From the NCBI RefSeq assembly GCF_938028185.1, contig NZ_CALJAH010000069.1, forward strand, positions 1-33,729: a stretch of 33,729 bases of DNA, read 5' to 3'. This DNA is from an uncultured Cardiobacterium sp. GTDB lineage: Bacteria > Pseudomonadota > Gammaproteobacteria > Cardiobacteriales > Cardiobacteriaceae. Shown piece by piece: positions 18,042-18,153 of this stretch; positions within the stretch are counted from its first letter, which is position 1; every line of letters starts with the position of its first letter. The notes below the pieces were generated by a model that ran no database searches, was not told the DNA's origin, and was given only the letters and a program-made list of their open reading frames with translations. A program made the translations under genes and the position numbers.

Positions 18042-18070
18042 TTGACACACCCTGCCCCCATCCCTATAAT
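18042..18070 (+). promoter_or_regulatory. Perfect consensus sigma70 promoter with A-rich UP region
   Basis: TTGACA (18042-47), 17-bp spacer, TATAAT (18065-70); AAAATAAAATAAA upstream; GC-rich discriminator CCGCCCC. Confidence 0.9.
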
Positions 18071-18077
18071 CCGCCCC

Positions 18078-18153
18078 GACATCATTGATGTTATCTCCTC
18101 TATATCCTCCTTTGGTGGTTGTTTGCCGGGTCGCAAGACCCGGCACTTTTTTT
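18078..18153 (+). ncRNA. Putative trans-acting small RNA (~76 nt) with CU-rich anti-SD motifs
   Basis: Lies between the consensus promoter and an intrinsic terminator; contains TATCTCCTC and TATCCTCCTT; no ribosome-binding site or complete ORF within the unit. Confidence 0.8.
18124..18153 (+). terminator. Intrinsic terminator of the sRNA
   Basis: TGCCGGGTC-GCAA-GACCCGGCA, 9-bp stem with GNRA loop, then C and T7. Confidence 0.92.

Follow-up and report, generated by a model that had tools for sequence, protein, structure and literature searches.

What is encoded by a short unit that carries the only perfect sigma-70 promoter of its genome, two anti-Shine-Dalgarno (anti-SD) motifs, and an intrinsic terminator within 112 nucleotides (nt)? 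The unit in question lies at positions 18042 to 18153 of the forward strand of contig NZ_CALJAH010000069.1, from an uncultured Cardiobacterium sp. (assembly GCF_938028185.1). The whole stretch of this DNA that was analyzed, 33,729 nt in length, is referred to here as the window. A preliminary description of the window had proposed an unannotated small RNA (sRNA) gene with twin anti-SD motifs at this place, and this proposal was borne out by conservation of the unit, by covariation in its two helices, and by the finding that neither strand holds a conserved open reading frame (ORF). We consider it likely that the locus encodes, as a gene of its own, a trans-acting sRNA of about 76 nt that blocks ribosome-binding sites (RBSs) as its relatives do. 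The sequence places this sRNA, as a gammaproteobacterial branch not yet catalogued, with the kind of RNA represented by the Betaproteobacteria toxic sRNA, Bordetella S17, and Neisseria NmsR.

Promoter and anatomy of the transcription unit

The promoter comprises a -35 hexamer TTGACA (18042 to 18047) and a -10 hexamer TATAAT (18065 to 18070) separated by a 17-nt spacer. It scored 12 out of 12 in a promoter scan and was the sole sigma-70-type site between 17400 and 18600. When both strands of the draft genome (G000; 482 contigs, 2,717,022 bases, 59.8% G+C) were searched by script for a perfect TTGACA-N16-18-TATAAT, this site alone was found; for spacers of 16 to 18 nt, about 0.16 such promoters are expected from base composition. 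TTGAC of the -35 hexamer was kept in orthologues, and TAtAAT was kept at the right distance in those of the Cardiobacteriaceae. An A-rich tract, AAAATAAAATAAA (18018 to 18030, about -60 to -48), may serve as an UP element, and AAAATAAAA[T/C]AA was retained in seven of the eight Cardiobacterium loci that had upstream sequence in a 30-locus alignment. The -10 hexamer is followed by a GC-rich discriminator, CCGCCCC (18071 to 18077). Discriminators were also GC-rich (mostly ending in CCCC) in Cardiobacteriaceae orthologues, which was not so in the Wohlfahrtiimonadaceae.

The predicted sRNA, 76 nt in length, extends from 18078 to 18153 on the plus strand, its start being placed 7 to 8 nt past the -10 hexamer and its end at the U-tract. 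It opens with stem-loop 1 (18078 to 18092; GACAUC-AUU-GAUGUU), in which 18078 to 18083 form 6 bp with 18087 to 18092 around an AUU loop. The stem-loop is followed by a 27-nt core, UCUCCUC[U/C]AUAUCCUCCUUUGGUGGUU (18094 to 18120), that was invariant over 49 distinct aligned sequences save for the single U/C position at 18101, with flanks that vary. The core holds the first anti-SD motif, CUCCUC (18095 to 18100), the second, CCUCCUU (18106 to 18112), and a GGUGG (18114 to 18118). The unit closes with an intrinsic terminator (18124 to 18153) made of a 9-bp stem spanning 18124 to 18145, a GCAA loop, a C, and U7 (18147 to 18153). Promoter, A-rich upstream tract, discriminator, 5' palindrome, both anti-SD motifs, and GNRA-capped terminator with its seven U residues all lie exactly where the preliminary description had placed them.

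RNA fold and covariation

The folding energy predicted for the 76-nt RNA was -26.1 kcal/mol (z = -4.66), a value that none of 200 shuffled sequences reached. The predicted fold consists of the 6-bp 5' hairpin, a mostly open middle, and the terminator. In the structure ensemble, the probability of being unpaired was 0.7 to 0.9 across CUCCUC and mixed across CCUCCUU.

A covariance model, designated R1, was built from 17 Cardiobacteriaceae sequences with both helices written in, and it scores positions 18077 to 18153 at 105.4 bits. Because MAFFT misaligned the 5' hairpin between families, pairs were counted in a model-fitted alignment, A4, which holds 51 R1 matches from 44 related loci; being fitted to R1, A4 leans toward the structure, its sequences are related, and it includes a weak extra match (L084, 375 to 429, 20.7 bits). 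Read within these limits, 95.5% of the cells in 47 distinct rows held standard pairs, compared with 72.7 +/- 0.9% when the 3' partners were shuffled. Two-sided changes were found in 14 of 15 pairs (153 cells), and on none of the five measures did any of 500 shuffles do as well. With the partners slid by 1 to 3 columns, pairing was only 29.8 to 52.6%.

Both helices contributed to this result. Five of the six pairs of the 5' hairpin change on both sides, with 99.3% of its cells paired, and for each of the nine terminator pairs the family contains a two-sided change. The hairpin occurs as GACAUC/GAUGUU, GACGUU/GACGUU, GUCAUC/GAUGAC, and in longer GACAUCUAG/CUAGAUGUU forms; the terminator stem occurs as GCCGGG/CCCGGC, GCCGCU/AGCGGC, GCCGAG/CUCGGC, GCUGAG/CUCAGC, and GCCUGC/GCGGGC. 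Its recurrence in relatives, where both stems carry compensatory changes, shows that the unit is not a product of chance.

Conservation and copy number

With 18030 to 18160 as the query, BLAST matched 37 of 41 related genomes, the own genome included. When the latter is set aside, the matches amounted to 20/22, 15/15, 0/2, and 1/1 genomes in families f1, f2, f3, and f4, respectively. The preliminary description had called for such a search for orthologues and paralogues; no paralogue was found by BLAST in the own genome, in which the unit is present as a single copy. An exact 24-mer of the core was found by pattern scan of a species-level genome collection in 43 stretches, belonging to Cardiobacterium (C. 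hominis, C. valvarum, and others), Suttonella, Dichelobacter nodosus, 'Rappaport israeli', Wohlfahrtiimonas, Ignatzschineria, several metagenome-assembled genomes (MAGs) of the Cardiobacteriaceae or Cardiobacteriales, and one MAG labeled Zetaproteobacteria. Two matches each were present in five further stretches, from MAGs of the Competibacteraceae, the Competibacterales, or unclassified Gammaproteobacteria. Searches of plasmids and phages returned no match to the sRNA unit, and an origin from a mobile element was discarded on this basis. A scan of the window for tRNA and tmRNA genes found none.

Several observations on the copies themselves are added here. In L061, L062, L064, L068, and L082 (the Competibacteraceae, Competibacterales, and unclassified Gammaproteobacteria MAGs), two copies stand in tandem at a spacing of 130 to 310 nt, and every copy has a promoter-like site and a terminator to itself; in L061 there are three copies. 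Such an arrangement resembles the sibling pair of Neisseria. Suttonella ornithocola (L069, L088) has two diverged copies on different contigs, compared with the single copy of Cardiobacterium; these share the core and differ in linker and terminator. Many copies outside the genus Cardiobacterium also carry a motif in the -35/spacer region, TTGACGCAnTGCAnCA, with a small palindrome, GCAnTGC. It was present in the promoter regions of L024, L026-L033, L051, L055, L061-L064, L068, and L082, which include other Cardiobacteriaceae genera and Competibacteraceae-type MAGs, and was absent from the promoter at 18042 to 18070 and from the Wohlfahrtiimonadaceae. TTGACGCAnTGCAnCA could be the site of a regulator.

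Relationship to Rfam families

An Rfam scan of the whole window found no family at its gathering score. In a permissive scan of 17600 to 18400, the best match was RF02278 (Betaproteobacteria toxic small RNA), with 33.4 bits and an E value of 8.6e-5 over the full model (1 to 64 of 64). RF02877 (NmsRb) matched at full length, 5' hairpin included, with 24.2 bits (E 0.21). RF02278 was likewise the best match for all 20 copies in 14 related loci, at 28.4 to 44.5 bits, none of which reaches 50; the highest NmsRb score among these loci was 32 bits, in L082. The likeness to the toxic sRNA that the preliminary description had named was thus recovered as a full-length match, though one below the cut-off. 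Its second comparison, with Pseudomonas PrrF, found no counterpart, as the scan of 17600 to 18400 returned no PrrF match at E <= 10.

The wider distribution was assessed in a class sample of 151 genomes, composed of the own genome and one from each of 150 other families, which may include Betaproteobacteria in the NCBI sense. R1 found matches in 28 of these 150 families (E <= 0.001, 29 to 53 bits), most of them with the core ACUCCUCCAUCCUCCUUUGGUGG. At E <= 1e-5, RF02278 matched in 19 of the 151 genomes, in ten of them at the same places as R1, and its cut-off was passed in one genome only (G189, 54.5 bits). R1 in turn recognized this true member with 29.9 bits (E 4.5e-6 in 20 kb). Given these reciprocal and coincident matches, with one of them over the cut-off, we conclude that the two models see one continuum, of which the Rfam seed covers a small part. 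Membership of the Cardiobacterium sRNA in one homologous superfamily with these RNAs is likely from the sequence comparisons. In the same sample, no locus exceeded the cut-off of the NmsRb model.

The class-wide search also yielded sRNA-like units with the core ACUCCUCCAUCCUCCUUUGGUGG in L141-L169, and those that were tested all scored below the RF02278 cut-off. Several of them have an upstream TATATTAGAAAAT-like motif, and a tRNA gene lies about 1 kb away in 8 of 20 loci. Of the three next-best RF02278 matches in the own genome, two proved to be terminators after tRNA genes and the third an unrelated short unit. The latter (contig C74, 3615 to 3669, minus strand; locus L012; 21.3 bits) lies in an AT-rich intergenic region, has a strong terminator (GCCCCGCAUGAUUAUGCGGGGUUUUUUU), and may be a separate sRNA. 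An assignment of ncS35 to RF02278 was discarded, as its own authors report no Rfam match for it (PMC5760752).

Predicted targets

Complementarity to the sRNA was searched for in 2098 translation-initiation regions (TIRs) of the own genome. When only Watson-Crick pairs were allowed, matches of at least 9 nt occurred in 13 TIRs, of at least 10 nt in 4, and of 12 nt in a single one. This sole 12-nt match, TAGAGGAGATAA, is located at -15 to -4 of gdhA (NADP-glutamate dehydrogenase; NF006929, 745 bits); its complement in the sRNA, UUAUCUCCUCUA, stands where the open region begins. The same 12-nt complement was kept in four Cardiobacterium genomes, and in three gdhA loci of a second Cardiobacterium lineage the complement is instead a 10-mer, ATATAGAGGA, in another register. 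Over 24 orthologous gdhA loci, complementarity measured at least 10 nt in 7, 7 to 8 nt in 7, and 6 nt or less in 10. Cofolding of the sRNA with the two gdhA types gave interaction energies (ddG) of -11.6 and -13.8 kcal/mol.

Two comparison genes, taken from the same list of matches, did not behave in this way. An ilvE-like candidate showed no more than 8 nt of complementarity over 17 loci, and a fructokinase-like candidate, with 10 nt in the own genome, showed 9 nt in one other locus and 6 to 8 nt in the other seven of nine; both were dropped. Because long complementarity is kept in two registers at gdhA and not at these two genes, gdhA is a reasonable prediction for a target within the genus, and the best one obtained from the sequences.

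Weighing the evidence

A number of results weigh against reading the locus as the gene for an RBS-blocking sRNA. The TIRs derive from 2221 rough gene calls, whose starts were chosen with a bonus for SD sequences. Duplex energies averaged -14.4 over these TIRs; internal gene segments gave -14.2 and the reversed sRNA gave -15.0, so that no enrichment was seen. The distributions of the longest helix, with G-U pairs allowed, were alike for TIRs and controls. Complements of the GGUGGUUG part, which are rich in A and C, did not exceed permuted 8-mers in TIR enrichment. An apparent 3- to 7-fold TIR enrichment of AACCACCA-type complements was rejected for the same kind of reason, as it is general for A/C-rich 8-mers (ranks 20/70, 9/56, and 36/56). 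At gdhA itself, complementarity falls to the level of an SD sequence (6 nt or less) in the 10 of 24 loci mentioned above, which lie outside the genus. The Rfam scores miss the respective cut-offs (50 bits for the gathering score of RF02278 and 52 bits for NmsRb). The middle hairpin, whose counterpart in RF02278 and NmsR displays the second CU motif, appears in the minimum-energy fold only as a weak, interrupted helix, five of the eight pairs of the first RF02278 hairpin being nonstandard, and covariation has no power there because the columns are invariant. Finally, expression and both ends of the transcript are predictions from the DNA.

The scans bear most directly on the wording of the preliminary description, which had spoken of a global translational repressor. 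Since neither the energy scan nor the helix scan separates TIRs from controls, global repression finds no support in these data, and the characterized relatives control a metabolic regulon. The same lack of specific enrichment would fit another role, in which a real RNA does not act mainly by pairing with mRNA and instead serves as a decoy for a protein or RNA, or mimics the 3' end of 16S rRNA and competes for SD sequences as a nonspecific brake on growth. CCUCCUU is identical to the core of the canonical 16S rRNA anti-SD sequence, and the extreme invariance of the sRNA core is what a single universal partner would favor; overexpression of relatives was also reported in two studies to slow growth (PMC5688073, PMC9973317). 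Against this stand the regulons defined for characterized relatives, which were validated by compensatory or loop mutations (PMC11722255, PMC9973317), and the report that S17 was not toxic in Escherichia coli (PMC11722255). Retention of long gdhA complementarity in two registers within the genus also speaks for pairing with mRNA. The likeness to 16S rRNA was judged on the canonical sequence, the own 16S 3' end being absent from the draft assembly. Altogether, we regard a decoy or mimic as unlikely.

Two readings in which the unit is not an independent RNA gene fare worse. The sequence does hold ORFs that could make it a small protein gene, namely, a 34-codon ORF on the plus strand (ATG at 18088, MLSPLYPPLVVV...) and a minus-strand ORF entered at 18085 or 18136, for which the CU motifs would be the RBS; GAGGAG stands 9 nt ahead of a minus-strand ATG, and a putative 32-amino-acid ORF overlaps Bordetella S17 as well (PMC11722255). 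The preliminary description had itself raised the minus-strand gene at 18085 as an explanation that would overturn the sRNA, and it was not conserved over 30 loci: the longest minus-strand ORF starting in the unit ranged from none to 113 amino acids, with differing starts, positions, and sequences. Plus-strand ORFs ranged from 19 to 334 amino acids over the same loci. Those of the Cardiobacteriaceae had only MLSPLYPPLVVV in common and diverged beyond residue 12. The reading frame of the core is not the same in the two families (MLSPLYPP... and MFSSISSFGG...), owing to a 2-nt difference in the Wohlfahrtiimonadaceae, and the 27-nt core is free of synonymous variation. Neither ORF matched Pfam, and no SD sequence precedes the plus-strand ATG at 18088. 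A coding function is therefore barely credible to us.

The promoter could instead drive the gene downstream (18374 to 19390, plus strand), which has the Pfam domain NMO (nitronate-monooxygenase family), so that the hairpin and U-tract would form a regulated terminator in a cis-acting leader. This NMO-like gene lies on the same strand, 220 nt downstream, and was adjacent in eight of nine Cardiobacterium loci, but it was a neighbor in none of 21 loci of other genera, in which the RNA core is identical. As the NMO-like gene is a neighbor only within the genus, the RNA is not a leader tied to it. Moreover, the minimum-energy and centroid structures offer no alternative anti-terminator fold, a 155-nt miniature inverted-repeat transposable element (MITE) intervenes between terminator and gene in this genome, and in relatives from the Competibacteraceae two to three copies stand in tandem, with a separate promoter and terminator for every copy. 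We judge a leader or attenuator very improbable.

Proposed function and significance

If the locus is an sRNA gene as we favor, transcription would start at its own very strong sigma-70 promoter and stop at the intrinsic terminator to give a transcript of about 76 nt. Hfq usually binds sRNAs at a U-tail such as this one, and an hfq gene was identified in the genome (101.3 bits). With the aid of Hfq, the anti-SD core would pair with a number of mRNAs at their ribosome-binding regions. By analogy with the Burkholderia RF02278 RNAs, Bordetella S17, and Neisseria NmsR (NgncR_162/163), pairing may block translation initiation and often destabilize the mRNA. Because gdhA is the best predicted target, the sRNA probably tunes amino-acid, nitrogen, and central metabolism. 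GC-rich discriminators of rRNA-type promoters are linked to control by (p)ppGpp and DksA. Together with the retention of a GC-rich discriminator in the Cardiobacteriaceae and the precedent in Neisseria, this suggests discriminator-based control, in which synthesis of the sRNA would follow growth rate or (p)ppGpp.

Among the members of the order Cardiobacteriales are C. hominis, a HACEK agent of endocarditis, D. nodosus, the agent of footrot in sheep, and Wohlfahrtiimonas. A search of the literature (main texts) found no sRNA of the Cardiobacteriales. The sRNA is likely a major posttranscriptional regulator in this order, as it is near-universal there, its promoter is the best in the genome, and its core is unchanged across two families. 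An anti-SD sRNA family known as betaproteobacterial (RF02278, S17, NmsR) would also extend into the Gammaproteobacteria. For annotation, the consequence is that the Rfam model misses most of the family. The findings also bear on why the seed of anti-SD RNAs has stayed invariant for so long, and they provide a concrete testable pair, the sRNA and the RBS of gdhA. It is tempting to go further and to propose, speculatively, that the toxic sRNA, S17, NmsR, and the Cardiobacteriales RNA form one ancient anti-SD superfamily across Beta- and Gammaproteobacteria, with a core of about 27 nt frozen in each lineage, and that in Cardiobacterium the strongest promoter and an rRNA-like discriminator couple growth rate or (p)ppGpp directly to how genes for nitrogen and carbon assimilation, gdhA among them, are translated. 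We hold this combined proposal to be possible but rather doubtful.

Neighboring features

The MITE-like repeat mentioned above, about 155 nt in length, is present twice in the window (18189 to 18343 and 19470 to 19623), with terminal inverted repeats of 26 to 32 nt and an internal palindrome. The two copies are about 78 to 87% alike, and a BLAST search of the draft genome gave 161 matches, 17 of them of at least 130 nt. The copy at 18189 is the one between the sRNA terminator and the NMO-like gene, and in this genome the latter starts at +280 from the core, compared with +130 in the closest relative, that is, about 150 nt further. On the other side, the sRNA is flanked by an ORF of 542 amino acids (16000 to 17628, minus strand) with a twin-arginine-like N terminus (MNNRRRFLVQS...). 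It gave a weak match to an NAD(P)-binding Rossmann family (24 bits) and no match to any other Pfam family.

Comparison with characterized systems

Among other anti-SD sRNAs rich in C or CU, alphaproteobacterial MmgR (Rfam RF00519, suhB) shares an unpaired UCCUCC followed by a terminator. With 21.4 bits (E 0.068) and a cut-off of 41, the match was weak and confined to motif and terminator, and common descent is not supported by it.

The RF02278 RNAs of Burkholderia cenocepacia (ncS03, ncS05, ncS27/bdhR1, and ncS62) are described as "double-hairpin RNAs" of 57 to 92 nt with CU-rich unpaired stretches; 55 to 80% of their predicted interactions were at start sites, with the CU-rich regions covering RBSs, and overexpression of ncS27 slowed growth, whereas its silencing sped growth up (PMC5688073). 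It is from such growth inhibition upon overexpression that the family takes the name "toxic". The Cardiobacterium sRNA has the same layout, UCUCCUC...CCUCC...GGUGG and a terminator with a U-tail within about 60 to 90 nt, and likewise two CU-rich, RBS-complementary stretches in unpaired regions (the second motif being mixed), as in the RNAs predicted to pair at RBSs (PMC5688073). In both, a Rho-independent terminator forms the second hairpin, and all nine of its pairs covary here. Unlike RF02278, the present family has an additional covarying 5' hairpin, outside the 64-nt Rfam model, and a 2-nt insertion (AU) between the motifs, by which the model's first hairpin is weakened. The own genome has a single copy, whereas Burkholderia has three to five scattered copies, and the host belongs to the Cardiobacteriales (Gammaproteobacteria according to NCBI) and not to the Betaproteobacteria.

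Bordetella S17S, as presented in a 2024 preprint by Sim et al. (PMC11722255), is an Hfq-dependent RNA of about 67 to 70 nt that is cut by RNase E from a precursor of about 190 nt. Its Sites 1 and 2, which are single-stranded, pair with RBSs, BP2158 is repressed through such sites, and S17 is given as homologous to RF02278/bdhR1, with 27 nt that are 100% conserved across orders of Betaproteobacteria. The 27-nt near-invariant core of the Cardiobacterium sRNA resembles this stretch, the comparison being one of description and not of sequence. In contrast to the processed S17S, a primary transcript would be expected here because a consensus promoter stands 7 to 8 nt before the 5' hairpin. The preprint reports conservation of S17 for the Betaproteobacteria only.

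Neisseria NmsRA and NmsRB (NgncR_162/163, also RcoF1/2), to which the authors of the B. cenocepacia study themselves noted a likeness (PMC5688073), have three stem-loops (SL) and two alpha-SD regions, of which the SL1-SL2 linker and the SL2 loop are active. According to two reports (PMC9973317; bioRxiv 10.1101/2022.11.13.516309), they are bound by Hfq, repress genes of the tricarboxylic acid cycle, the methylcitrate pathway, and amino-acid metabolism by occluding RBSs, and are controlled by RelA, rising in level upon relA deletion. The Cardiobacterium sRNA differs in that the NmsRb model has the motif UUCUCCUUUGUAGA in place of AUCCUCCUUUGGUGG, and in that Cardiobacterium has no tandem sibling pair, although relatives in the Competibacteraceae are tandem. 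The order of elements is nevertheless that of the Neisseria RNAs, with a 5' stem-loop, a single-stranded UC-rich alpha-SD1, an alpha-SD2, and a terminator. SL1 and the terminator are backed here by covariation, SL2 is weak, and both anti-SD motifs stand at the expected places.

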